Shown: positions 21,689-53,535, counted from the stretch's first letter. The stretch: 64,000 bases of DNA from a virus (IMGVR_UViG_3300029288_000109:39321-103320), one strand, 5' to 3'. Translations and numbers: made by a program. The notes: generated from the sequence alone by a model not told the origin.

Positions 21689-21904
21689 CTATATTCCTTT
21701 TTCAACAAGCCGCTTAAACGCTATCTTTTTGTTTTTGTGTTGATCCCTTGTTTCGCGGCACTCACCAACGGCACCAGACTCACGATGAATAATTCTGACC
21801 CCCGATTCAACTTTATCGCGGTTTTGTCCACCGCAACCACCACACCGAAAGGTCTGAACATCAAAATCATCTTTAGTTATAGAAAATAATAGTTCACGCG
21901 CCAT
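21689..21904 (-). CDS. peptidyl-tRNA hydrolase, class I release factor GGQ domain (ArfB/YaeJ-like)
   Basis: FRCGGCGGQNRDKVESGVRIIH...RDQHKNK. Confidence 0.85.
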   Translation of the reverse strand: MARELLFSITKDDFDVQTFRCGGCGGQNRDKVESGVRIIHRESGAVGECRETRDQHKNKKIAFKRLVEKGI

Positions 21905-25488: not shown

Positions 25489-25833
25489 AACCGTACCCCC
25501 TTATCCATCTAAAAGTTTTTGAAGCTCTCTTATGAACTCTCTCTTTTTGTGTTTTTCTGCGTCCCACTTAAGAACCAAATAGCCACCAATATGCCTATAT
25601 ATATTAGTATAGATAGTTTCGTCTTTGTGGTTTTTTGTGTCATTTTTGAGTGACTCATTGCTTGTTCTGCTGTCTGGAAAGTATCTCATTTTTAACCCCA
25701 GTGGACGGAATCGAACCGCCAAAATATGCCCATCCCCATTACTGTTGAGAGCATCGTTTTGCCACTTAAACTACACTAAGGCGAAAAAATCACCATTGGG
25801 TGATGATTTTTCCATATAGGAGTATCAATCCTA

Positions 25834-41723: not shown

Positions 41724-42682
41724 TTTGAAACTTTTTTGGATATCTCATTATATATTTTCTTGTTTTTAGACAGAAAAGAAAATGTGTTGTTAGCGCCTTG
41801 TCCCATGTTTTCATCATTATATTTATACCACGCACCAGCCCGTTCAATAATTTTATACCCTACGGCCAAATCAAAAACGTCAGCCATTGCTGATACACCA
41901 AATGATGAATAAATACTTATTTCACCTTTTCTGAATGGCGGTGCAACAGAATTCTTAACTGTTTTAATCTCAACCCTGCTGCCTATAATACGCTTATCAG
42001 AACCCTCAATAGAGCCGATCCGATGAAGTTTAAGTCTTGTCGCCGCCAAATGTTTTAATGCGTGACCACCAGGAGTATCAACACCAGTGCGCCCACTATA
42101 AAGATTCATCTTATCACGAACCTGATTAATAGCAAGGACGGTAACATCATTGCGAAGACCTTCCGTAACCAATGTTTTTATATTGCAACTTAATAGCCGC
42201 GCAAGCTCACTTACGTTTGAATCGCCAACCTCTTTTTCTCGTTCACGTTTTGTATGCAATGCGGCAACCGAATCAAGGACTATAAGGTCAGTTCCACCAA
42301 CCTCTGCAAACTTCTTCCATATATCAATAGCCGCTTCACCAGACGGAGGCTGGGCCACATGAACACGAGACAAGTCAACGCCGCAACTCTCCATGTATTT
42401 AACATCCAGTTTTCCCTCAACATCAATATATAAAACAAACCCTTCGTTTTCTAACACGGACTTTATACACGTAAAACTAATAGTTGTTTTGCCAGCGCCC
42501 TCTTCCCCAAAAATCTCAGTAATCATTCCACGTGGAAAACCGCCACCCAAAACATAATCAAGCGACGGAATACCAGTTTTAATTACTGTTCTAACAACCT
42601 TGTCAGCACTTTGAAATATCTTTTGTTTATATTGTTTTTCAATGTCAGCAACCGCTAAATCAAACGCTTCTTGCCTATTCAT
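41708..42682 (-). CDS. recA: recombinase RecA
   Basis: GEEGAGKTT, LDSVAAL, INQVR, TPGGHALK, KNSVAPPFR, GAWY. Confidence 0.95.
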   Translation of the reverse strand: MNRQEAFDLAVADIEKQYKQKIFQSADKVVRTVIKTGIPSLDYVLGGGFPRGMITEIFGEEGAGKTTISFTCIKSVLENEGFVLYIDVEGKLDVKYMESCGVDLSRVHVAQPPSGEAAIDIWKKFAEVGGTDLIVLDSVAALHTKREREKEVGDSNVSELARLLSCNIKTLVTEGLRNDVTVLAINQVRDKMNLYSGRTGVDTPGGHALKHLAATRLKLHRIGSIEGSDKRIIGSRVEIKTVKNSVAPPFRKGEISIYSSFGVSAMADVFDLAVGYKIIERAGAWYKYNDENMGQGANNTFSFLSKNKKIYNEISKKVSKCLEE

Positions 42683-43037
42683 TTTTTGTCCCCTTTATAG
42701 ACGAAAGAATAAGTTCATGTATATCTTTTTGTAAATTATCAGATTTAAAATCAGATGGGATTCTTAACAACGATGCGTTCTTGTCCTCAACATAAAGCTC
42801 TTTTGAGTTATCACGATGAACCTGACGAGCAAAATCTTTTCTATCGTTATGGAAAAATGGCACAAAGGTTTCGTGCTGCTTACCGTCTATTTCAACATAG
42901 ACGTTCAGCGGCAGAATAAAAAAATCAAAATATAGCTTGGCCCCTTCGTGCTTGGTATAAACCTCGCACTTCACGTTCTGCGGACCAAACATTTCAATAA
43001 GTATGTCCTTTACCTTGCATTGCAATATACTTTTCAT
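42675..43037 (-). CDS. DUF559/Vsr-like PD-(D/E)XK endonuclease
   Basis: FDFFI...VEIDGKQH...RD..K...LLRI; start re-set to ATG 43037 just after tRNA-Ala. Confidence 0.75.
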   Translation of the reverse strand: MKSILQCKVKDILIEMFGPQNVKCEVYTKHEGAKLYFDFFILPLNVYVEIDGKQHETFVPFFHNDRKDFARQVHRDNSKELYVEDKNASLLRIPSDFKSDNLQKDIHELILSSIKGTKNE

Positions 43038-43039
43038 AG

Positions 43040-43110
43040 TGGAGCTAACAGGATTTGGACCCGTGCTATCGCCGTGCAAGGGCGAGGTTCTCCCATTAAA
43101 CTATAGCCCC
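43040..43110 (-). tRNA. tRNA-Ala(UGC)
   Basis: cloverleaf, TCGCC-CTTGCAC-GGCGA, G3:U70; T-loop TCCAAAT. Confidence 0.9.
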
Positions 43111-43159
43111 AATAACCCTGCTGAATGCGCGAGGCAAGCCCAGTAGGGGGTAGATAACA

Positions 43160-43561
43160 CTATTCTTCTACATGATTTTTGCCATCTACAAAAACAGGAG
43201 TTTTGAACTCGGTAAAAATCTCTGTTATAAATATCCCATCGAACACAAACTTATAATTATATTCTCCGTATTTAACACGAGCACCATACATACACGCAAA
43301 CTCGTCACTCAAAACAAAGCAATCTGTCTCATAGTTATAATAGCCATTAAACCTATAGCCACCTAGCCCACGATCCAGCCTATCCTGAAAATCACGAAAA
43401 CAATTATCAAAACCATCAAAATCAACCACGTCTGACGAAGTAAAAATAATATCCCTGCTGCGCAAATCAAAAACTTCAATTAAGATTACCAAAACACTCT
43501 CCTCTTTCATATATATGCTACTTTTTACTACGTATCCAATACCCCTGTGGCGGGGATTCAA
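43160..43561 (-). CDS. hypothetical protein (likely start ~43510)
   Basis: ORF between HNH and tRNA-Ala. Confidence 0.5.
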   Translation of the reverse strand: MNPRHRGIGYVVKSSIYMKEESVLVILIEVFDLRSRDIIFTSSDVVDFDGFDNCFRDFQDRLDRGLGGYRFNGYYNYETDCFVLSDEFACMYGARVKYGEYNYKFVFDGIFITEIFTEFKTPVFVDGKNHVEE

Positions 43562-44057
43562 TGCCTAATCTTTTACATCTTTTTTTAATTGCTTTATCAG
43601 ATACACCATATTTTTTTGCTACTCTAGTCATCGGAGCGCTCCAAACTTCTTTGTGTAGTTCGTCAGCAGTAATATCAAATCGCTTTGATGCCGCCGTAGA
43701 ACAAGGAGGTGAACAATATGTTCTATTTACATTTTTTGTTTTAAATACTATTTTACACACAGGACAAGTGAATTCATAAATTTTAAAATCATAGTTGTTG
43801 TTTTTATGTAATCTTGCATGTTCACTTTTTGTTAAAATAATTAAATTTTCTAAATCATTGTTTTTCTTATTGCCATCAACATGATGGACTACCTCATTTT
43901 TGGTCAACCATCTTCCAAGTTTTATTGAAGCAATATGACGATGTAAATAAACTATACTACAACTATAACTTAGTGGGTGCGAACCATCATTAAAATATAA
44001 ATACCCTTCTTTTTCACTAAGTTTTTTATTTTTTATTTCGTATTCAATGGGTTCCAT
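43518..44057 (-). CDS. HNH homing endonuclease with zinc finger and C-terminal HTH
   Basis: HRH..S.KLGRWL...EVVHHVDGNKKNN..ENL; CxxC; YGVSD.AIKKRCK..GYW; start re-set to MEPIEY. Confidence 0.88.
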   Translation of the reverse strand: MEPIEYEIKNKKLSEKEGYLYFNDGSHPLSYSCSIVYLHRHIASIKLGRWLTKNEVVHHVDGNKKNNDLENLIILTKSEHARLHKNNNYDFKIYEFTCPVCKIVFKTKNVNRTYCSPPCSTAASKRFDITADELHKEVWSAPMTRVAKKYGVSDKAIKKRCKRLGIESPPQGYWIRSKK

Positions 44058-44084
44058 AATTTTTATTCTTTCTACGCCTTTATA

Positions 44085-44155
44085 TACGAATGGCCGTAAT
44101 CGAAACGACATCTTCTGGATGTAAGCCAGATGCACTACCTTTATGCTACATTCGC
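44085..44155 (-). tRNA. tRNA-Val(UAC)
   Basis: TCTGG-CTTACAT-CCAGA; acceptor GCGAATG/CATTCGT-A. Confidence 0.88.
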
Positions 44156-44160
44156 ATTTA

Positions 44161-44349
44161 CTATTGATACAACGCGCCCCTCATCAAACATCCACACCTT
44201 GGGCACTCACGGGCGCTACACGGCGTTTTCGTAGCATGGGTAATGGTAAGACCACACTCTGGACAAATACACCGTTCTGACGCCTGTACAGCTTGCGACT
44301 GTTTCAATTTTGAAACATGTGTTATTTTTGGCACACGTTCTATTTTCAT
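44161..44349 (-). CDS. small zinc-ribbon protein
   Basis: CICPECG..ITH....PC....CPRCG.LMR; ATG 2 nt after tRNA-Asn. Confidence 0.7.
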   Translation of the reverse strand: MKIERVPKITHVSKLKQSQAVQASERCICPECGLTITHATKTPCSARECPRCGCLMRGALYQ

Positions 44350-44351
44350 AG

Positions 44352-44425
44352 CTCCTAGAGGCGGACTCGAACCACCAGAAAACCGGAGCAACAATCCGGG
44401 GCCATACCAATTAGGCGATCTAGGA
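44352..44425 (-). tRNA. tRNA-Asn(GUU)
   Basis: CCGGA-TTGTTGC-TCCGG; TCCTAGA/TCTAGGA-G. Confidence 0.88.
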
Positions 44426-44444
44426 ATATGTTCAATTATAATAG

Positions 44445-44516
44445 CTGCCCTGAGAGGGGTCGAACCCCTATACCTTGGTCCAAGGCCAAGTGTCCTACCG
44501 TTTAGACGACAGGGCA
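44445..44516 (-). tRNA. tRNA-Gln(UUG)
   Basis: CTTGG-CCTTGGA-CCAAG (C33); TGCCCTG/CAGGGCA-G. Confidence 0.85.
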
Positions 44517-44524
44517 TTAAATAA

Positions 44525-44598
44525 AAGCCGTGGCTGAAATCGAATCAGACAAAGAAGCTTTTGCAGAGCTCCCCCAGAACCATCTGGGAACCACAGCC
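44525..44598 (-). tRNA. tRNA-Cys(GCA), non-canonical 8/4 fold
   Basis: GCA anticodon, U73, 8-bp acceptor, 4-bp T-stem, 6-bp D-stem. Confidence 0.8.
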
Positions 44599-44711
44599 AT
44601 CGGGCAGTTTTATATCGTGCCCAGGATAAATCCAATAAAAGGACGTGCTTGATAGGTTTTTGCCACCGGATCCTATCGTCCGGCTCAGAAGGAATCTTGC
44701 GACCTTGGCAA
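44599..44711 (-). ncRNA. candidate structured ncRNA between tRNA-Gly and tRNA-Cys
   Basis: three-way junction plus GATAGG/CCTATC pseudoknot and 3' hairpin. Confidence 0.5.
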
Positions 44712-44786
44712 AGCGAATGATGGGACTTGAACCCACAAAATCTCTTGGTTGGAAGCCAAGCGCCCTACCAATTAGGCTACATTCGC
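44712..44786 (-). tRNA. tRNA-Gly(UCC)
   Basis: CTTGG-CTTCCAA-CCAAG; U73. Confidence 0.93.
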
Positions 44787-44790
44787 ATCA

Positions 44791-44869
44791 TACCCCTGGC
44801 GAGACTCGAACTCGCAATTAATTTGCAGCATTAGAAGTGCTGTGCACTGTCCAGTTGTGCTACAGGGGC
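44791..44869 (-). tRNA. tRNA-Arg(UCU)
   Basis: CAGCA-CTTCTAA-TGCTG; A20; 10-nt variable region. Confidence 0.9.
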
Positions 44870-44874
44870 AAAAA

Positions 44875-45114
44875 TTATTCAATTAAGCTACAGGGGTATA
44901 AGTCTATAATATTACAAAACTCACTATACAACCTGTCTAAATTATTATACTTCCCCTTGTCATCAATTTTTATTTTGCCGCTGGCAACCATCTCGATCAA
45001 CTTATCATACACAACAAGCAAATGCCGTGAGCACAAACAATATACCTTATTGCTGCGCCACCCCAAATCTTTCGAGAGACCAATTCCTTCTTCTTCACAA
45101 AGATTACATTTCAT
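44875..45114 (-). CDS. small zinc-binding hypothetical protein
   Basis: CNLC...CSRH. Confidence 0.55.
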   Translation of the reverse strand: MKCNLCEEEGIGLSKDLGWRSNKVYCLCSRHLLVVYDKLIEMVASGKIKIDDKGKYNNLDRLYSEFCNIIDLYPCSLIE

Positions 45115-45787
45115 AGTGTTTACCTGTCCAGTATCCTTTGGTTGGGAAATTTATTCCAAACTTTTTACAACGCTTCTTTACGGCATTACCAGATACTCCA
45201 TATTTTTCTGCAATTTTTGTCATTGGTGTTTGCCACACCATTTCTCTTAACTCGTTTTCTGGTATATCAAACTTAAATAGCTTGTTATATATAGGTAATC
45301 TTTGTGCCATAAACTCACAAGCGCGAGAGCAACATCTATGTTTGCTATTTCTTACTAAAAATAAATTATTACATATTGCACAATTCTTTAATGTTAAACG
45401 AAGTGTTCTGTGTTTTTTAAAACCATCATTACTATTACTCTTGTTGTTCTTTACTTTGCATTCAATCGAACAATATTTACTACCCAACCACCCTAAAAAT
45501 AAACATCCACACACACAACATGTTTTTGAATAACTGCTAAAATGTTTTTTGGCGTGATTTGAATGCGTCATTAATTCAAGATTAGATAAATCATTATTGC
45601 TTCTATTTCCGTCTATGTGATGAACATTCTCATTAGTATTAATCCACCTTCCTATTTTCATAGACATCAAGTGTCTATGATATAAAACAACTCCACTAGT
45701 GTCCGAAAGAGGGTGCAACTTATCACAAAAATAACAGTATCCTCTTGGCATTTTAGAAATCTTTATATCTTTATTATACTCAATCAT
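45104..45787 (-). CDS. HNH homing endonuclease with two zinc fingers and C-terminal HTH
   Basis: HPLS...YHRH...GRWI...VHHIDGNRSNN..SNL; YGVSG.AVKKRCK..GYW. Confidence 0.9.
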   Translation of the reverse strand: MIEYNKDIKISKMPRGYCYFCDKLHPLSDTSGVVLYHRHLMSMKIGRWINTNENVHHIDGNRSNNDLSNLELMTHSNHAKKHFSSYSKTCCVCGCLFLGWLGSKYCSIECKVKNNKSNSNDGFKKHRTLRLTLKNCAICNNLFLVRNSKHRCCSRACEFMAQRLPIYNKLFKFDIPENELREMVWQTPMTKIAEKYGVSGNAVKKRCKKFGINFPTKGYWTGKHYEM

Positions 45788-45789
45788 AA

Positions 45790-45881
45790 CGGAAGGGGAG
45801 CGAGTTGAACGCTCAAGACACGGTGTTTCCGCATTCGGTAATTTTCAAGACTACTGCCGTCGCCAATCGGCTTGCCCTTCC
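45790..45881 (-). tRNA. tRNA-Ser(UGA)
   Basis: GTAGT-CTTGAAA-ATTAC, long variable arm, G73. Confidence 0.9.
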
Positions 45882-45884
45882 AAG

Positions 45885-45960
45885 CGTCTATGAGAGGACT
45901 TGAACCCCCAAAATCTTTCGGTTCGTAGCCGAATGCTCTATCCGGTTGAGCTACATAGAC
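45885..45960 (-). tRNA. tRNA-Arg(ACG)
   Basis: TTCGG-CTACGAA-CCGAA. Confidence 0.93.
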
Positions 45961-45969
45961 GCAAACTAC

Positions 45970-46128
45970 TTATTTCGGAAAATCCCTTATTGAATCACGA
46001 TCTTCTTTTGGAACGTATGTACCATGAGCAATAGAACCAACACAACCTGAAAGAACTGTATTGCTATGAATATCAAACTCGTTAAAATCAGAAAGTACAT
46101 GTTTATATTCTTTTTGCCATTTTTCCAT
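45970..46128 (-). pseudogene. truncated Pol-beta-type nucleotidyltransferase (RlaP-like) fragment
   Basis: GSIAHGTYVP....DSI, then stop before the catalytic DxD. Confidence 0.6.
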
Positions 46129-46150
46129 TGCTAATTGCGCCCCTTTTAGA

Positions 46151-46228
46151 CGAGACGACGGGGACTTGAACCCCGAAAATAAAATCACGGCTTAAAAGGC
46201 CGCTGCCTTACCATTAGGCTATCGTCTC
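46151..46228 (-). tRNA. tRNA-Lys(UUU)
   Basis: GCGGC-CTTTTAA-GCCGT; 11-nt U-rich variable region. Confidence 0.9.
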
Positions 46229-46231
46229 TTG

Positions 46232-46306
46232 TGGACCCACTCAGGCTTGAACTGAGAACCTGTTGATTATGAGTCAACTGCTCTAAACCATTTGAGCTAT
46301 GGATCC
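46232..46306 (-). tRNA. tRNA(CAU), probably Ile2 (lysidine) rather than Met
   Basis: GTTGA-CTCATAA-TCAAC; GGATCCA acceptor resembles Ile2. Confidence 0.85.
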
Positions 46307-46336
46307 GTCCCGCGTATAAAACGCAGGAATAACCAC

Positions 46337-47026
46337 TTATCTTACTGCAACACCACGCCACGTTTCAATACGCTTCTTTACAAACATTTTTAAATCAAAA
46401 TCTTTTTCTGGTTTGTAGATAACTATTAAAACATCATCATCGGTCTTAAATCGTGGATAACGAACCACGCTTCTATTTTCCCCAAAATCATCGGTAACAG
46501 CATCAACCGGAAGTCGATTTTGTTCTGAAATACGTTTATCCTTTTTTTCTGGCGAATCATAACACGAACCATAAATAACCCTGAATACATTTATTATATG
46601 CGGGTTACGCCAATCACTATTAATAACATCAAACGCATCACATAACGAAATCCCAGTATCAGAAATATGAGTAAAACTATTTTCATGGTACCACAAAATT
46701 TGCGGTCTAACAAAAAAATGGTTAAAATTATTTTGTGTTACACCACTATCGGCAGACTCATAAGAGTAGTAAACCGAGAATATATCCCCACCAAGCTCTT
46801 TTCCTCCGGTATAAAGAGCCTCCAACGGATCTACATTATTTTTTACTCGTGATGGAGTAGAGTTTATAACACTATCGTCTAACCTGCGAACAATAATATC
46901 ATCAATAAACCTATTGTCGTCCATTGCCCAATCTCTTGTTACACACGGCTGACCACAAAATTCACTTGTTAATTGCTTTAGCCCTTCAAATTCTTCCAAA
47001 AATGCTTTAAACCTTAATCTTTCCAT
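46337..47026 (-). CDS. hypothetical protein
   Basis: 229-aa ORF, SD GGAGGT. Confidence 0.7.
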   Translation of the reverse strand: MERLRFKAFLEEFEGLKQLTSEFCGQPCVTRDWAMDDNRFIDDIIVRRLDDSVINSTPSRVKNNVDPLEALYTGGKELGGDIFSVYYSYESADSGVTQNNFNHFFVRPQILWYHENSFTHISDTGISLCDAFDVINSDWRNPHIINVFRVIYGSCYDSPEKKDKRISEQNRLPVDAVTDDFGENRSVVRYPRFKTDDDVLIVIYKPEKDFDLKMFVKKRIETWRGVAVR

Positions 47027-47074
47027 TTTAATTACCTCCCGTAATTAAAAACTTTGGCATCCCGCCAACGACCA

Positions 47075-47113
47075 CTATTTCTTAGGCTTGCATTTCTTTT
47101 TTGCTTTAGGCAT
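47075..47113 (-). CDS. 12-aa basic micropeptide MPKAKKKCKPKK
   Basis: very strong SD GAGGGGGTGA; downstream hairpin plus T-run. Confidence 0.45.
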   Translation of the reverse strand: MPKAKKKCKPKK

Positions 47114-47138
47114 ATGATCACCCCCTCTATAATATTTA

Positions 47139-47204
47139 TTACTGTTTGTGTTTAGCCCAATATCCACGACCAGGTTTTTCTTTTCCACATTTTTCACACT
47201 TCAT
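47139..47204 (-). pseudogene. collapsed HNH remnant MKCEKCGKEKPGRGYWAKHKQ
   Basis: N-terminal CxxCG joined to the P..GYW tail shared by neighbouring HNHs; SD GGTGA. Confidence 0.55.
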
Positions 47205-47229
47205 GTTTTATCACCATTTATAATAATTA

Positions 47230-47304
47230 CAGGATCGGAGAGACTCGAACTCTCAAATTACTTGTTTTGGAGACAAGTGCCTTATCCATTTTGGCCACGA
47301 TCCT
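47230..47304 (-). tRNA. tRNA-Trp(CCA)
   Basis: CTTGT-CTCCAAA-ACAAG; AGG start, G73. Confidence 0.93.
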
Positions 47305-47308
47305 AAAC

Positions 47309-47392
47309 TGCCCAAGGTGAGATTTGAACTCACATGGCATTTCTGCCAACGGATTTTAAGTCCGCACGGTATCCCAGTTCCACCACTTGGGC
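47309..47392 (-). tRNA. tRNA-Leu(UAA)
   Basis: GCGGA-CTTAAAA-TCCGT, long variable arm. Confidence 0.92.
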
Positions 47393-47420
47393 AATCGGCG
47401 GGTAGACCCCGCCTAAATAT

Positions 47421-47834
47421 TTATTCTTTTTCTTGTTCTGGAGTAGCTTCTGACTGCATTCGTGCATTATGGCCACGATGTACAAGATGAACTATCTCAT
47501 TCAAAACCGAATAAGGCGAATTACTAATAGTTTCACTCATATAAGGTTGATCACACTGTTTGGTGTCTTCAACCATTGGCAAACACGCTGCCCCACTATT
47601 ACTATGAACATGTCTACCTACGACATTGTTTATTTTATCATTTAATCGTTCCTTAATACCATCTCTATACTGACTACAAACACTCATAATTCTTTCATCA
47701 ATCGCAAGCAAAAAACCAATAGGATCATCTTGCATAATACTAACCAACCTTTGTGCAACCTCATCTCCACCCATTTTGTTGATTTCTTCACGCAATTCCG
47801 TATCAGTTTTCATTATCCTGTCCTTTCCGCGCAT
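47421..47834 (-). CDS. hypothetical protein
   Basis: 137-aa ORF, SD-like AAGGA upstream of MKTD. Confidence 0.6.
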   Translation of the reverse strand: MRGKDRIMKTDTELREEINKMGGDEVAQRLVSIMQDDPIGFLLAIDERIMSVCSQYRDGIKERLNDKINNVVGRHVHSNSGAACLPMVEDTKQCDQPYMSETISNSPYSVLNEIVHLVHRGHNARMQSEATPEQEKE

Positions 47835-47852
47835 AGCGCATAAAATGTTTCA

Positions 47853-47877
47853 AGCGAGTAACGAGGCTTGAACTCGT
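47853..47877 (-). pseudogene. tRNA 3' fragment (T-arm plus acceptor strand, Gly-like)
   Basis: ACGAG-TTCAAGC-CTCGT-TACTCGC-T; no D or anticodon arm upstream. Confidence 0.7.
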
Positions 47878-47888
47878 ATTGTTGTAAA

Positions 47889-48464
47889 CTATATATGCAT
47901 AATGTTTTCTTTTTTTAACCAATATCCTTGGTTTTTAGTCTCTATTCCTAATTTTTTACATCTTTTTTTAACCGCAACATCAGAAACCCCATATATTTTC
48001 GCTATATCTCGCAATGACATTTTATTGACAAGTAATATTAATTCTTGTATTTCTTTATCAGTATTAATTTTTAGTTTCTCATAATGCCTATGTGCACATC
48101 CTATAGAACAATGCTTCCTGTTTTTATCTCCTTCAAATATTTTACCACAAAACAAACACACAACTTGTTTTTTCTTACAAGAAGAATCCCTATTATGACT
48201 ATGTATTTTAGCATGATCTGAACACGTAACAAGCTGCAAATTCCCAATTGAGTTGTTGTCTATATCGCCATCTATATGATGAACGTGTTCGTCGCTATGT
48301 AGCCATCTCCCAAGTTTCAACGACGCCTGATGTCTATGATAATAAACAAAACCGCTTTTATAACATAATGGATGTTCCATGTCACAAAAAACTAATCGTC
48401 CATTTATACGACGTTTGCACAAATTAATCAATTTATCATAATCTTTTGGCAATAAGTATTTCAT
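47889..48464 (-). CDS. HNH homing endonuclease with zinc finger and C-terminal HTH
   Basis: HPL...YHRHQASLKLGRWL...VHHIDGDIDNN..GNL; YGVSD.AVKKRCK..GYW. Confidence 0.9.
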   Translation of the reverse strand: MKYLLPKDYDKLINLCKRRINGRLVFCDMEHPLCYKSGFVYYHRHQASLKLGRWLHSDEHVHHIDGDIDNNSIGNLQLVTCSDHAKIHSHNRDSSCKKKQVVCLFCGKIFEGDKNRKHCSIGCAHRHYEKLKINTDKEIQELILLVNKMSLRDIAKIYGVSDVAVKKRCKKLGIETKNQGYWLKKENIMHI

Positions 48465-48466
48465 AA

Positions 48467-48543
48467 TTACGGGGATCAGATTTGAACTGATGTCTCGGAT
48501 TTATGAGACCCGCACTGGAACCAGACTCCAGAATTACCCCGTA
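48467..48543 (-). tRNA. tRNA-Met(CAU), initiator-like, enlarged D-arm
   Basis: CGGGT-CTCATAA-ATCCG; TACGGGG/CCCCGTA-A; ATCAG-TTCAAAT-CTGAT. Confidence 0.8.
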
Positions 48544-48548
48544 ATAAA

Positions 48549-48866
48549 CTATATCAAACTCAGTAATCCCAAAATAACAACAGTACCAATATCATATAAC
48601 TCTCTTATAATGCCAACCCTATTATCTGTTTTAACAGCATCGGCAAACTCAGTAAATTCCTCGAACATTACTCCCAAAACCTCGTGGGGCGAAACAAGCT
48701 TTTTATAGCCTTTCTTTTTAAGAGCCTCTTTAAAATTTTTATTCATAGCGTCAAAAACCACATGCAAAAGGTCCATGTTAAGTTCTTCAGCCATTTTGCT
48801 CGAAGCCCCCTTGTGTTTCACTAATACGCTTGTTTGCTTTTTCTGCATAATCAGCCGACAACTCAA
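48549..48866 (-). CDS. MazG-like NTP pyrophosphohydrolase fold protein (likely start ~48794)
   Basis: HE..GV..EEF.EF......ELYDI. Confidence 0.55.
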   Translation of the reverse strand: MSCRLIMQKKQTSVLVKHKGASSKMAEELNMDLLHVVFDAMNKNFKEALKKKGYKKLVSPHEVLGVMFEEFTEFADAVKTDNRVGIIRELYDIGTVVILGLLSLI

Positions 48867-49584
48867 ATCCTATAAAATTACGGTCAAGTTTCTTGCAAGC
48901 CACCCCAGTGGTTCCAAGACCAGCAAAAGGGTCTACAACAACATCATAGCGATATGTCAACTGTTGTAACAACCTGTATGGCAATTCAACAGGAAACATA
49001 GCTGTGTGACCCATTGCTTTTTGTTTTGTTTCAGGTGCCATCGTCCACATTGCAAGACTATTCTTTATAAACTCGTCTCTAGAAACAGTCGCTTCTCCCT
49101 TATCACGTCGCTTTGTTGTCTCTTTGGCAAACACCATAATATACTCAAACGGAGTTGGAAAAGACGGGCACGATGGAGACAACCACGATCCCCACGATGT
49201 TCTATTACCTATCTGACTCTTGTTCCAAATTATGGTCGTCATTGGAATATAATTCAATTGTCTAGACATAAAATAAATAATATCAACATGAGTAGGAATA
49301 GCGCCATTTTTTCGATCTCCTATATTAATAGCAACTCTTCCGCCACTTTTCAAGCGATAATACAGTTTTTCAAAAATACTTTTAAGCCACCCTATGTACT
49401 CTGTATGCTCCCGATTATCATTATACAGGTCATATGACTCTTTATGATACTTGTTGTTGCCAAGGTCCACGTTATAAGGAGGACTTGTTATAACCATATC
49501 TATCGAATTTTCACGCAAGCTGTCAATTAATAGTAAACTGTCCCCCTGTGTCACTAACTGGAACACTGGCGTCCTCCATTTCAA
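48787..49584 (-). CDS. DNA amino-methyltransferase, beta class (N4-C/N6-A)
   Basis: GDS, TSPPY, HTAMFP, DPFAGLGTT, FIGFEL. Confidence 0.92.
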   Translation of the reverse strand: MKWRTPVFQLVTQGDSLLLIDSLRENSIDMVITSPPYNVDLGNNKYHKESYDLYNDNREHTEYIGWLKSIFEKLYYRLKSGGRVAINIGDRKNGAIPTHVDIIYFMSRQLNYIPMTTIIWNKSQIGNRTSWGSWLSPSCPSFPTPFEYIMVFAKETTKRRDKGEATVSRDEFIKNSLAMWTMAPETKQKAMGHTAMFPVELPYRLLQQLTYRYDVVVDPFAGLGTTGVACKKLDRNFIGFELSADYAEKANKRISETQGGFEQNG

Positions 49585-50126
49585 GTATGATTTTTTTCAA
49601 CCTGTACGTTGCGTCAACCTTCTTGAAATCAAAACCATTAATCATTATATCGGACTGCATCAACTTAGCCGCCACAGCTATAAGTATCATAGGGTCTTTA
49701 CACACCAGTTTCAACAAAAATTCTTTTATTTTTATTAACATGTTATATGGCCCCATTCGGAACATATAGGCTGCTGCCAGGCTGCTGCGCCTGTTGTGCC
49801 ATCATTGCTTCTTCAACCGCTTTCTCAAAGTTAAGCTCCATCACTTTCAGAATTCCGACAACAACCCTGCAAAACGACAAAAGACTTTTGTTCTCTTCGA
49901 GCTCCAAATCAACACCATCGTGTTCAGCAACAAGTTTGACTATCTTATCAGAAACTCTCCCAAGAACACCGCGCTGACCTTCCTTAACATCAAAACCAGT
50001 AATCTTTTCTCCTGCTTCCTTAATCTGCTCCCATGGTATTGTCTGCAATATAGCATTCATAACCTGTTCAATCGGAGCATCCTGTGTCGTTATAATCGGA
50101 TTAGCCATTAAATATCCTCCACCCAT
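49523..50126 (-). CDS. two hypothetical proteins (49523-~49742, 49743-~50108)
   Basis: packed ORFs. Confidence 0.5.
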
Positions 50127-50578
50127 TTAGGATAAACACCAAGCCTTATTTTGTTTTGTTCAATAGCATTAGCTCTTATCATTTGTATATGAGGGTAGTC
50201 TTTGAAACTAGTCCAATCACCGCCCCAGAAAAGACCAAGCTTTTTAGATATAGCACCAAGCTTACTCCATGGCAACTTCATGTCCCATGACCAATTACCC
50301 TTATTGTCTTTTCCTACAAAATCAACTGCGACCCCATACGTGTGCATACCAGCGGTCTTAACCTTTGAATAACCCTTTTTATAAAGCTCAAGCTGCCTTG
50401 CGTTAGATCTGAATGTTTCATAAATATAAAATGGCAACTTCTGTTTGGCAAGCTCCTGCTTCACTTGTATAACTTTTTCACGAAACGGCGGATAAAGCAA
50501 ACAAATCTGTTCCTCGCCACACCACTTTGGAGATTTAAAAACATCGGACTTCACAATAACTTCTTTATACCAGTTCAT
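50108..50578 (-). CDS. M15 family peptidoglycan peptidase (endolysin-like)
   Basis: FRS...Q..LY, HTYGVAVD, WGGDW..FKDYPHIQ. Confidence 0.88.
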   Translation of the reverse strand: MNWYKEVIVKSDVFKSPKWCGEEQICLLYPPFREKVIQVKQELAKQKLPFYIYETFRSNARQLELYKKGYSKVKTAGMHTYGVAVDFVGKDNKGNWSWDMKLPWSKLGAISKKLGLFWGGDWTSFKDYPHIQMIRANAIEQNKIRLGVYPKWVEDI

Positions 50579-50671
50579 ATCACGCCTCCTAAATGCGCCA
50601 GATGTTCGCCTTTGTATTTATCCACTACTTTCGTAGTTAGAGTTTCAATACTCAAGCTATCTCTGGACTAA

Positions 50672-50743
50672 TGACCCTGCGGAGAATCGAACTCCGATTA
50701 CCAGGGCGAAAACCTGGTGTATGATCCATTATACTACAGGGCC
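50672..50743 (-). tRNA. tRNA-Glu(UUC)
   Basis: CCAGG-TTTTCGC-CCTGG. Confidence 0.9.
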
Positions 50744-50745
50744 AA

Positions 50746-50817
50746 TGTGATCGACGGGACTTGAACCCGCACCCTCTGCGTTCACAGCGCAGCGCTCTGC
50801 CTTGAGCTACGACCACC
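50746..50817 (-). tRNA. tRNA-His(GUG) with encoded G-1 and A73
   Basis: CTGCG-CTGTGAA-CGCAG; G-GTGGTCG/CGATCAC-A. Confidence 0.88.
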
Positions 50818-50840
50818 ATACATATTTTAATCATTTACAA

Positions 50841-50923
50841 TGGGCATGGAGGGAGTCGAACCCTCAAGGTTTTTAGCCACGTGGGTTTGAGCCACGCTTG
50901 GTTTCCAGTTTCAACACACGCCC
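50841..50923 (-). tRNA. tRNA-Leu(CAA)
   Basis: CGTGG-CTCAAAC-CCACG, variable arm. Confidence 0.9.
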
Positions 50924-50930
50924 ATAGGAA

Positions 50931-51851
50931 CTATTTTTTTAACCAAAAACCCTGTTTTGGTCTTTCTATATTAAGCTTATTGCATCTTTTAGCCACAGCC
51001 TTATCAGAAACCCCATATATTTTAGCAACATCACGCAATGGCATTTTATTAACATAAGAAATAAATTCTTGTATTTCTTCTTCTGTGTTAGTTTTTAGTT
51101 TTTGTTGCGCCTTGTGTGCGCACTCTTGAGAACAAAACTCATTCCTTTTATTATCAAATTCTTTACCACAATAAATACATTTATTTTTTATCTTGTTTGT
51201 TTTAGGGGCAACATCTTTTTGAAATTTTACCTTCCTGCTTCTGTGACAATTGACTCTTGGTATATATGAATAATCACTATCGTTATATACCGTTAAATCT
51301 ATAAAAATAGTGTTTGTTTCCTTCAAAAACGAAAAAGTCAAAATTCTACGTAAATTATCCCATTCAACATCACTAACACAATTATCTGTTTTCTGTGAAA
51401 ACAAAAACCAATGTAATTTAGTATGCGCCACCCTACTCATAATTAATAAATTCCTTGCAGAAAAATTTTTAGGGTTCTCGTCTATATGATGAACTACCTC
51501 ATTAAACTCAAGTTTTCTTCCTACTATAGACTCGGCTACAAGCCTATGAACATGACGTTCTCCATCATAAATATATTTTCCGAGTTTGCCATGCTGATTT
51601 TGTCTACAAATAAGATGGCAACTTTTACAATACCGCTGATTCTTTTTCCACAACCTAATTTCTTTCCCACAATTTTTACAATTACTTATGCCATACCTCC
51701 CTCCCCTATTTTTGAGTTGTTCCCCAACTCTCAAATTAAAACATTTTCTACAATATTTTCTATCTTTTAAACTTTGTTCGCCACATTTTATACATATGCC
51801 TTTTGGCACATTAATCACCGTTATTAATTCAAAGTTTCTCCACCTGGGCAT
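50931..51851 (-). CDS. HNH homing endonuclease with zinc fingers and C-terminal HTH (likely GTG start ~51809)
   Basis: HRLVAE...EVVHHIDENPKN...NL; YGVSDKAVAKRC..GFW. Confidence 0.88.
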   Translation of the reverse strand: MPRWRNFELITVINVPKGICIKCGEQSLKDRKYCRKCFNLRVGEQLKNRGGRYGISNCKNCGKEIRLWKKNQRYCKSCHLICRQNQHGKLGKYIYDGERHVHRLVAESIVGRKLEFNEVVHHIDENPKNFSARNLLIMSRVAHTKLHWFLFSQKTDNCVSDVEWDNLRRILTFSFLKETNTIFIDLTVYNDSDYSYIPRVNCHRSRKVKFQKDVAPKTNKIKNKCIYCGKEFDNKRNEFCSQECAHKAQQKLKTNTEEEIQEFISYVNKMPLRDVAKIYGVSDKAVAKRCNKLNIERPKQGFWLKK

Positions 51852-51855
51852 TACA

Positions 51856-52392
51856 TCAATTGTATTCGTTTGGTTCTACACCGAGATAAATAGACCAAAT
51901 TTTTTTGGAGTATTCGTCGCATCTGGGGCCAATTTCAGCAATAATATATTGCCTTAATTTTGGAGCATAAGGGGCCCTATTCAAATGTAAGCCAGAGTTT
52001 TTAAGACTTTGGTGTCCTTTTTTTACGTTACATGGTTTGCAACTGGTTGTCACATTATCCCAAACAGAAATACCGCCACTACACTTCGGAATAACATGAT
52101 CTATGGTCAAGGTATTAATATCGCCGCTTTTTCCGCAATATTGGCAAGTAAACTTATCCCTGATCATAACGTTCTTTCTTGAAAACTTAACGGGCTTGGT
52201 TAAACCAAAGTGACGATTAGCCACCGTAATAACCAGAGGAACCTTAATTTGAACAGAAGGGCTGCGCAAAACCTTGTCTGGGTGCTCTTCAACAACCGAG
52301 GCTCTGCCAGCAAACACCATAGAGACAGCCTTTTGAGAAGAAACCCATCCAATAAATTGATAACCCCTGTTAAGAACCATTGCTCTGCTCAT
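51856..52392 (-). CDS. HNH endonuclease, McrA-like family
   Basis: MVLN.GY, RDKFTCQYCG, TIDHVIP..SGG...WDNV..SCKPCN..KG. Confidence 0.9.
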   Translation of the reverse strand: MSRAMVLNRGYQFIGWVSSQKAVSMVFAGRASVVEEHPDKVLRSPSVQIKVPLVITVANRHFGLTKPVKFSRKNVMIRDKFTCQYCGKSGDINTLTIDHVIPKCSGGISVWDNVTTSCKPCNVKKGHQSLKNSGLHLNRAPYAPKLRQYIIAEIGPRCDEYSKKIWSIYLGVEPNEYN

Positions 52393-52407
52393 TTTAATTT
52401 CCCCCTA

Positions 52408-52482
52408 TAGCCCGTCCTGGTAACGATCCAGGTGCCTCTTGTATATCAGACAAGCGCTCTAAGCCATTTGAGCTAACGGGCC
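52408..52482 (-). tRNA. tRNA-Ile(GAU)
   Basis: CTTGT-CTGATAT-ACAAG; T-loop ATCGTTA. Confidence 0.88.
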
Positions 52483-52501
52483 ATTTTCTTTTTATTCATA
52501 G

Positions 52502-52580
52502 TGGCCGAGAAGAGAGTCGAACTCTTATGATTTCTCGCTATCTTCTAAAGATAGTGCGCCTACCGTTACGCCACTCGGCC
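52502..52580 (-). tRNA. tRNA-Leu(UAG), shortened T-loop
   Basis: CTATC-TTTAGAA-GATAG; AAGAG-TTCGA-CTCTT; GGCCGAG/CTCGGCC-A. Confidence 0.75.
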
Positions 52581-53423
52581 TTTATTTGTTCTTGTTCTGC
52601 TTCTTAAGTGTAATGACGCATGTTCAGAAATATCCATTATTTCCAAATTAGAAGGATCATTATTATCTTTGTTTCCATCTACGTGATGAACTATATTATT
52701 TTTAGTCAACCACCTACCGTCTTTAACAGAGGCAACATGTCTGTGTAATAAGACCACTCCCCTTTTATCACTTAATGGGTGCTCTTTGTCTATAAAAAAC
52801 CAATATCCGTGCAACATTTTGTCGTACTTTCTTACAACAAAACTCTTGTTGTATTCAGATGGTGTTTTAAATTTAACGCCTGGCTTAGGTCTTATTTCTT
52901 TAAAACAATTCGAGCAAACTAACAATAGGTTATCAATAACATGATTTGAATAATCACCATCCATATGAAGCACCTCTAACCAAACTTTACCTGTAGATGG
53001 AGTTATTTTATTATACCCACAACGCTCACATTTTTCACCACGAGTCTCAATTATGTGTCGTTTTACATAATTTGATACTTTAAAATCGGTTCCTCCTCGC
53101 TCCTCTCCGTTTAACCATCTTTTTATATATTCATCGTGATAATGCCTTGTTTTACATTTTATACTACAAAATTTTATCTTACCAGTTTTGTTATAAATTT
53201 CTTTGCCACAATACGTACATGTACCTGCTAAAAACATTTTAACACCATTAAAAATATATGCAACAACCCTATTGTCTAACACCGCCTTAGTATTATGTTT
53301 TCCAAATGGCGAACACTTTAAACAAAATTTTCTACTATTAATTATATGCGGAACATCATCTATTATAATACGATTAGGAAATTCATCACCACATCTTCTG
53401 CATTTTGGCATTTGTTCACCCAT
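52566..53423 (-). CDS. double-HNH homing endonuclease
   Basis: CERCG...LEVLHMDGDYSNH..DNL..VCSNC and HRH...GRWL...VHHVDGNKDNN..SNL. Confidence 0.88.
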   Translation of the reverse strand: MGEQMPKCRRCGDEFPNRIIIDDVPHIINSRKFCLKCSPFGKHNTKAVLDNRVVAYIFNGVKMFLAGTCTYCGKEIYNKTGKIKFCSIKCKTRHYHDEYIKRWLNGEERGGTDFKVSNYVKRHIIETRGEKCERCGYNKITPSTGKVWLEVLHMDGDYSNHVIDNLLLVCSNCFKEIRPKPGVKFKTPSEYNKSFVVRKYDKMLHGYWFFIDKEHPLSDKRGVVLLHRHVASVKDGRWLTKNNIVHHVDGNKDNNDPSNLEIMDISEHASLHLRSRTRTNKGRVA

Positions 53424-53458
53424 GTGTAGCTTAATTTATAACATTATTTTTTTAAAAA

Positions 53459-53535
53459 TCTGAGCGGGTAGATTTGAACTACCGAATTGTCCTGTCCCCA
53501 AAACAGGCCGGGTGGCCAGACTCCCGAACGCTCAG
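53459..53535 (-). tRNA. tRNA-Pro(UGG)
   Basis: CCTGT-TTTGGGG-ACAGG; C1-G72, A73. Confidence 0.9.

Follow-up and report, generated by a model that had tools for sequence, protein, structure and literature searches.

The window analysed here, a 64,000-nucleotide (nt) stretch comprising bases 39321-103320 of a 103-kb IMG/VR virus contig (IMGVR_UViG_3300029288_000109, estimated to be ~64% complete), contains a co-directional array of about 20 tRNA genes that lack an encoded CCA. Within this array, four open reading frames (ORFs) start 2 nt past the discriminator base (N73) of the preceding tRNA. Such an N73-YU-AUG junction (Y, pyrimidine) is a position-specific and recurrent gene start in many unrelated phage contigs, but it is rare in an unselected sample of phage tRNAs. 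We consider it roughly an even bet (about 50%) that excision of the tRNAs by RNase Z yields near-leaderless mRNAs for the four abutting ORFs, whose translation would not depend on a Shine-Dalgarno (SD) sequence.

The tRNA set used for all counts in the window comprised 21 members: the 18 minus-strand tRNAs called by ARAGORN and Rfam between positions 43040 and 53535, a tRNA-like gene outside the array, a tRNA-like element with a CAU anticodon loop, and a putative tRNA-Cys (Table 1). N73 was placed by T-arm geometry, which agreed with the Rfam ends, and the minus strand was read directly. An initial annotation of the window had claimed five tRNAs ending in N73-YT-ATG, and direct reading bore out all five junctions (tRNA-Ala, tRNA-Asn, tRNA-Ser, the CAU element, and tRNA-Leu[UAG]), each with the A of the start codon at tRNA position 76. 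Its statements that no tRNA encodes CCA (0 of 21 trailers), that the trailers of tRNA-Gln and the putative tRNA-Cys read YTA-TT, and that ORF stops lie close to tRNA 5' ends at five sites were likewise correct. These five ORFs, with stops at 44161, 44875, 45970, 48549, and 50931, end 5, 5, 9, 5, and 6 nt, respectively, short of the next tRNA. In contrast, the mini-ORF behind tRNA-Leu(UAG) did not hold up as a fifth gene, since it runs into tRNA-Ile and nothing marks it as a gene; its ATG probably arose by chance on a common YTA trailer. The CAU element had been listed as a tRNA-Met, and here the claim stood in part: the element has the CAU loop and a cloverleaf as its minimum-energy fold (-26.6 kcal/mol, z = -3.0), but its Rfam score lies below the cut-off of 29 bits and it was missed by ARAGORN. 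The tRNA-to-ORF spacers in the array were bimodal, with four of exactly 2 nt and the rest measuring 15, 22, 27, 35, and 93 nt.

With an ATG probability of 0.021 on this strand, an ATG at one fixed offset in at least 5 of 21 tRNAs corresponds to p = 7e-5. For comparison, we compiled 241 unique tRNAs from loci of other phages, fetched through protein anchors, and counted ORFs of at least 60 amino acids (aa). An ORF at +3 was present in 4/21 cases in the window versus 2/241 in the other phages (Fisher p = 4e-4), and TG followed A76 in 5/12 versus 15/178 cases (Fisher p = 0.004). These results indicated that the geometry is non-random.

As judged from protein alignments, the four ATGs are the true starts, because the three short HNH paralogues can be aligned with one another starting at residues 1-6 and homologues in two other phage loci (L091 and L092) begin with MYNK, compared to M-IE-YNK in the window phage. 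The 120-aa ORF behind tRNA-Ala was found with an identical start in the protein collection. All four starts are ATG, and the bases upstream belong to the acceptor stem. The proposed absence of a usably spaced SD was confirmed: the sole AGGAG, at the Asn junction, lies 2 nt from the ATG and is thus too close for use. The accompanying contrast to other genes of the window survived only in part: the junctions are SD-less, but an SD core of at least 4 nt precedes just ~43% of first-ATG starts. All array elements are on one strand; a promoter and terminator scan yielded zero terminators within the array and sigma-70-like sites at chance level, and no -10 box was present upstream of the four ATGs when TANNNT was sought by reading 6-8 nt upstream. 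The 5' folding energies of the four ORFs were 0.0, 0.0, -3.5, and -8.3 kcal/mol (genome background, -3.6 +/- 3.5), with both abutting HNH ORFs unstructured at 0.0 kcal/mol.

The trailers showed a second regularity. U was present at position 74 or 75 in 20 of 21 tRNAs (57% expected; p = 1e-4), and 9 of 21 trailers read YTA (1.1 expected; p = 5e-7). According to PMC10100781, which cites Pellegrini 2012, a uracil at most 2 nt past the discriminator activates Bacillus subtilis RNase Z ~200-fold. Since the U74/U75 of the phage matches this uracil, YT is better read as a putative RNase Z maturation signal than, as initially annotated, a degenerate CCA; CCA is indeed absent, but the trailers do not look like mere decay. 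In a Streptococcus in which all tRNA genes are CCA-less, RNase Z cuts directly after the discriminator (PMC8549757). The phage array is similar to these Firmicutes systems (for B. subtilis, Pellegrini 2003 and 2012 as cited in PMC10100781) in its unencoded CCA and its nearby uracil, but differs in that the trailer is discarded there and would be coding mRNA in the phage. The start codon of the abutting ORFs is the first position that keeps the U74/U75 signal intact.

To follow the junction through IMG/VR, we scanned for a single frequent T-arm word, then 11 bases, then one of several trailers, accepted junctions only as ARAGORN-confirmed tRNA 3' ends, and compared the fractions that open ORFs rather than totals. 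Spacers of 2, 3, and 6 nt share the YT trailer, and all figures apply among the matches listed. An ORF of at least 80 aa was opened at 30/78 junctions with a spacer of 2 nt (YT-ATG; 38%, 21 protein families), at 14/72 with 3 nt (YTN-ATG; 19%), at 4/67 with 6 nt (YTNNNN-ATG; 6%), and at 2/28 without a spacer (N73-ATG; 7%). The difference between spacers 2 and 6 was pronounced (p = 3e-6), and that between spacers 2 and 3 was smaller (p = 0.02). Of random ATGs in the first-scan loci, 17% opened ORFs of at least 60 aa and 9% opened ORFs of at least 100 aa. Pfam profiles of spacer-2 proteins start at residues 2-5, as for Metallophos (residue 2), PTH2 (residue 5), and GDP-mannose 4,6-dehydratase (residues 4-5, with the GxxGxxG motif directly after). 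Moreover, homologous proteins abut differing tRNAs at identical spacing. No cultured relatives of two of these junction examples were found.

Some individual IMG/VR contigs showed further features. Homologous proteins of ~205 aa are encoded behind tRNA-Tyr in some contigs but behind tRNA-Thr in one other, always at a TT-ATG junction. The small contigs L300 and L314 each contain several tRNA-abutting ORFs, with spacers of 2 and 3 nt. At L150:10651, a tRNA-Gly with encoded CCA is followed by TG, such that the A of CCA is also the start-codon A of a 189-aa ORF (MKKIILSLFDYSGNW...), and tRNA and mRNA would therefore compete for one base.

In the proposed mechanism, the array would be transcribed as long precursors, and the tRNAs, which need excision in order to work, would be cut out by RNase P and RNase Z of the host. 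The mRNA left by the RNase Z cut would carry a 5' monophosphate and a leader of 0-2 nt and would be translated without an SD in a leaderless manner. With a folded tRNA just 2 nt upstream, ribosomes should load poorly onto the uncut precursor, and expression of the abutting genes would therefore follow tRNA excision. The four ORFs would be pressed as near to the tRNA as the U74/U75 signal permits. The fall in ORF use from a spacer of 2 over 3 to 6 nt among the matches listed parallels the loss of leaderless initiation with leader length, which in Caulobacter is about two-fold per added leader nucleotide (PMC8459731). Tentatively, tRNA arrays in many phage lineages might act as mitochondria-like punctuated operons, SD-independent and with their output tied to tRNA maturation; with the same reserve, homing endonuclease genes might exploit such punctuation in the window phage, and ordinary enzymes elsewhere.

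Several observations weigh against this mechanism. Firmicutes RNase J1 acts on 5'-monophosphate RNAs, and the cut could therefore destabilize the mRNA rather than activate it. SD-less starts are unexceptional in the phage, given the ~43% mentioned above; with about half of its genes lacking a clear SD, SD-independent initiation requires no special route. ORFs at +3 are rare in the unselected phage tRNA sample (2/241). The truly leaderless arrangement N73-AUG, which would keep U75, is unused in the array and was unenriched in the survey, albeit at small numbers among the matches listed. The Asn-linked ORF carries structure of -8.3 kcal/mol near its 5' end. Neither RNase Z (PF12706) nor a CCA-adding enzyme (PF01743) was found in the 103-kb, 64% complete contig, and both would thus need to be supplied by the host. 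The four closest HNH homologues (L091, L092, L094, and L096) lie directly after a tRNA, with spacers of 10-24 nt and an SD in three of the four, which argues that the +3 geometry is not an HNH family trait. Finally, leaderless initiation in Caulobacter retains only about a quarter of its efficiency with a 2-nt leader, and in Escherichia coli even 1 nt of leader inhibits (PMC8459731).

Among the other explanations, pure accident is highly improbable. A76 may be common as a remnant of CCA, with TG following fortuitously in AT-rich DNA: A76 occurs in 12/21 tRNAs here and in 178/241 elsewhere, 8% of the latter have TG next without a gene, and the mini-ORF behind tRNA-Leu(UAG) resembles such a case. 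However, TG follows in 5 of the 12 tRNAs having A76 where 7% is expected (p = 9e-4), and four of the five ATGs begin an uninterrupted ORF that has homologues or clear motifs. It is also improbable, if less so, that the real starts lie further downstream, or that promoters inside the tRNA genes give primary transcripts that are leaderless or have short leaders. In-frame downstream ATGs do exist, for example at codon 13 of the Ser-linked HNH ORF, and phage-specific promoters may escape a scan for sigma-70-like sites. Against this, homology among paralogues and to distant homologues covers the N-terminal 25-30 residues and begins at residues 1-6, the internal ATGs lack an SD, and neither the missing TANNNT box 6-8 nt upstream nor the chance-level frequency of sigma-70-like sites points to internal promoters.

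Genome compaction has more in its favor, although we still regard it as rather unlikely. Here, invading homing endonuclease genes would have been inserted at, or trimmed by deletion to, the nearest position that spares YU(A), processing would have no selected role, and weak SD-independent translation would occur on any RNA, uncut precursor included, aided by an A-rich start (ATGAAA). The array is tight overall, with 2-4 nt between tRNAs and 5-9 nt between stops and tRNAs; one HNH stop inside a tRNA looks accidental rather than designed; YTA is present on 9/21 trailers, four of which have no TG after it; and about half of the phage genes are SD-less. In addition, the HNH homologues in other loci start behind ordinary spacers that contain an SD, and selfish nucleases, which could tolerate low expression, make up three of the four ORFs. 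Yet compaction predicts a spread of short spacers, whereas the array has four of 2 nt and none of 3-14 nt. Among the matches listed, spacer-2 ATGs open real ORFs six times as often as spacer-6 ATGs, and the spacer-2 examples include housekeeping-type enzymes. A folded tRNA 2 nt upstream should also obstruct 30S binding, which would disfavor translation from the uncut precursor.

Animal mitochondrial tRNA punctuation was reportedly described by Ojala, Montoya and Attardi in 1981. As in that system (reviewed in PMC4394434 and PMC8601606), tRNAs abut ORFs at 0 to few nt, RNase P and RNase Z would set the ends of the phage mRNAs, and the resulting mRNAs would be almost leaderless and without an SD. 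In contrast to mitochondria, just 4 of ~11 tRNA-to-ORF junctions abut in the phage, with a fixed 2-nt YU spacer; phage ORFs end in complete stop codons, 5-9 nt short of the following tRNA, and a bacterial ribosome would translate. Bacterial leaderless mRNAs, such as those of lambda cI and Tn1721 tetR, have been treated in a Caulobacter reporter study (PMC8459731) and a review (PMC9031893). Like the phage genes, they have an AUG and lack an SD, and in both groups the 5' end falls (for the phage, by prediction) on the start codon or directly beside it; two of the four phage 5' regions are unstructured. However, known leaderless mRNAs are primary transcripts with AUG first, whereas the phage 5' end would be processed, carry a monophosphate, and lie 0-2 nt before the AUG. 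A cut after N73 gives a 2-nt leader (YU), longer than the 0 nt of a strictly leaderless mRNA; a leader of 0-1 nt needs a cut further downstream.

In the literature searched, we found no description of phage tRNA punctuation or of leaderless mRNAs generated by tRNA excision. The notion that the arrangement pairs a phage version of tRNA punctuation with leaderless-type initiation is partly supported by the sequence features described here. If true, phages would make leaderless-type mRNAs through RNA processing instead of transcription, a route established so far only for organelles, and this would account for the expression of genes that sit tightly between tRNAs and lack a promoter or ribosome binding site. 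How much of the selfish nucleases and auxiliary enzymes is made would be linked to host RNase Z activity, and gene callers would gain a start-site rule beside tRNAs. The spacer dependence among the matches listed (2 > 3 >> 6 nt, with 0 not favored) constitutes a concrete prediction.

TABLE 1 Features of the tRNA array and additional elements of the window
Feature	Position	Strand	Junction or start	Evidence and remarks
Co-directional CCA-less tRNA array, ~20 genes	43040..53535	(-)		ARAGORN, Rfam, sequence reading
tRNA-Ala(UGC)	43040..43110	(-)	A73 at 43040, CT at 74-75, ATG at 43037	Rfam 61.3 bits, ARAGORN; G3:U70 pair seen
tRNA-Asn(GUU)	44352..44425	(-)	G73 at 44352, CT at 74-75, ATG at 44349	Rfam 49.5 bits, ARAGORN
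tRNA-Ser(UGA)	45790..45881	(-)	G73 at 45790, TT at 74-75, ATG at 45787	ARAGORN; Rfam clan match
tRNA-like element, CAU anticodon loop, unusual D-arm	48467..48543	(-)	A73 at 48467, TT at 74-75, ATG at 48464	Rfam 27.4 bits, fold
tRNA-Leu(UAG)	52502..52580	(-)	A73 at 52502, CT at 74-75, ATG at 52499	Rfam 54.8 bits
120-aa homing-endonuclease-like ORF	42675..43037	(-)	ATG on position 76 of tRNA-Ala	PHROG, Atlas; DUF559/Vsr-type motif D..VEIDGxxH
62-aa orphan ORF	44161..44349	(-)	ATG on position 76 of tRNA-Asn	Sequence; two CPxCG zinc knuckles
227-aa HNH_3 endonuclease	45104..45787	(-)	ATG on position 76 of tRNA-Ser	HNH_3 2.2e-11; C-terminal helix-turn-helix (HTH)-GYW tail
191-aa HNH_3 endonuclease	47889..48464	(-)	ATG on position 76 of CAU element	HNH_3 8.8e-10; HTH tail
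8-aa mini-ORF	52473..52499	(-)		Sequence only; runs 10 nt into tRNA-Ile
HNH_3 paralogue, non-abutting	43518..44057	(-)	27-nt spacer after tRNA-Val	HNH_3 5.8e-14
Three more HNH genes, non-abutting (52566-53423, 51856-52392, 50931-51851)	within 50931..53423	(-)		Pfam, sequence
Putative tRNA-Cys	44525-44598	(-)		From the initial annotation; called by neither ARAGORN nor Rfam
tRNA-like gene, undetermined anticodon	25695-25781	(-)		ARAGORN; outside array

The 120-aa ORF matched two PHROG homing-endonuclease families (phrog_559 at 2e-14 and phrog_9084 at 4e-12) and a DUF559-labelled Atlas cluster (0.95), while its matches to Pfam were all below threshold; its initial label as a DUF559 nuclease is thus backed by PHROG and Atlas, but not by Pfam. 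One of the sub-threshold Pfam matches (E = 0.05) was to FAST_2, a domain of the FASTK family, which processes tRNA-less mitochondrial junctions; this match is probably coincidental. An AlphaFold model of the protein had a predicted local distance difference test (pLDDT) score of 39 and was unusable. The stop of the 120-aa ORF overlaps the start of a UvsX-like gene. The 62-aa ORF, which ends 5 nt before tRNA-Val, matched UPF0547 weakly (0.0023), and homologue searches with these two ORFs returned self-matches only. In the alignment of the HNH paralogues, the H/N/H columns are invariant.

Interspersed among the tRNA genes of the array are six HNH genes, one homing-endonuclease-like gene of PD-(D/E)XK-like type, and further ORFs, with spacers of mostly 2-9 nt; those between tRNAs measure 2-4 nt (His-TT-Glu, Arg-CTT-Ser, and Met-CAA-Lys). 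Two non-abutting HNH genes, 51856-52392 and 52566-53423, start 15 nt after tRNA-Ile, with a GGGGG SD, and 35 nt after tRNA-Pro, respectively, and the latter has its stop inside tRNA-Leu(UAG). The segment 50931..53423 on the minus strand contains, besides its three HNH genes, tRNA-Leu(UAG) and tRNA-Ile. HNH nickases of phage T5 are encoded by free-standing homing endonuclease genes in a phage tRNA cluster. Homing endonuclease genes are known to colonize phage tRNA clusters, one example being T4 SegB (PMC2330249), and this accounts for the prevalence of nucleases at the junctions. The statement that the geometry serves mostly nucleases therefore needs qualification: three of the four real ORFs are nuclease-like, but nuclease-specific control is not indicated, since the same geometry serves a dehydratase, a phosphoesterase, and a PTH2 in other phages. 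As far as the compared loci show, the habit of lying right after a tRNA belongs to the HNH family, whereas the 2-nt geometry does not. The array resembles the SegB case in having nuclease genes between phage tRNA genes, and, like known tRNA-cluster homing genes, it holds several paralogues within one array; SegB is a GIY-YIG enzyme, in contrast to the HNH_3-HTH and PD-(D/E)XK-like proteins found here. For known tRNA-cluster homing genes, the literature searched contained no description of start codons flush with a tRNA. A variant of the array without nucleases was not found in contigs of three DNA runs, and two other metagenomes contained identical sequence. We considered a weak joint at 43038 (side 21, depth 2.4) unreliable and disregarded it.

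The source of the array is a novel, uncultured phage of ~160 kb. Near-identical DNA to the window is contained in landfill and groundwater metagenomes, no RNA run was among the sequencing runs listed with the sequence, and megablast of the array against cultured phages gave zero matches. The DnaE-type polymerase shares at most ~39% identity with Moorella phage MTATph1 and others, and the region analysed in MTATph1 contains one tRNA only. Searches for close relatives in IMG/VR and metagenomes via the HNH proteins, the 120-aa nuclease, and UvsX returned distant ones only (≤38% identity), the UvsX-like recombinase sharing at most 38% with anything in IMG/VR or metagenome contigs.

Several minor observations concern individual elements of the window. 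The tRNA-like gene at 25695-25781 (minus strand) has the trailer TTAAAA followed by the ATG of a 62-aa ORF without an SD; this is the single 6-nt tRNA-to-ORF spacer in the window, and it lies outside the array. tRNA-Pro (53459-53535, minus strand), called by ARAGORN but not reported by Rfam at E ≤0.1, shares an unusual D-arm (TTCNGGAGTCTGG...) with the CAU element (48467-48543, minus strand). The 285-aa HNH ORF (53423-52566) reads 15 nt into tRNA-Leu(UAG) (window positions 52566-52580, minus strand) and has its TAA in the D-arm, so an RNase P cut at the tRNA 5' end would leave a stop-less mRNA. A 71-aa ORF at 21689-21904 (minus strand) has a GGQ motif and an RF-1 domain (PF00472 at 4.7e-18) and resembles a small ArfB-like factor for release or rescue, which could matter if tRNA excision yields truncated mRNAs. 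A 21-aa ORF after tRNA-Trp (MKCEKCGKEKPGRGYWAKHKQ; 47130-47200, minus strand) ends in the GYW motif of the HNH paralogue tails and may be the remnant of a decayed homing endonuclease gene.

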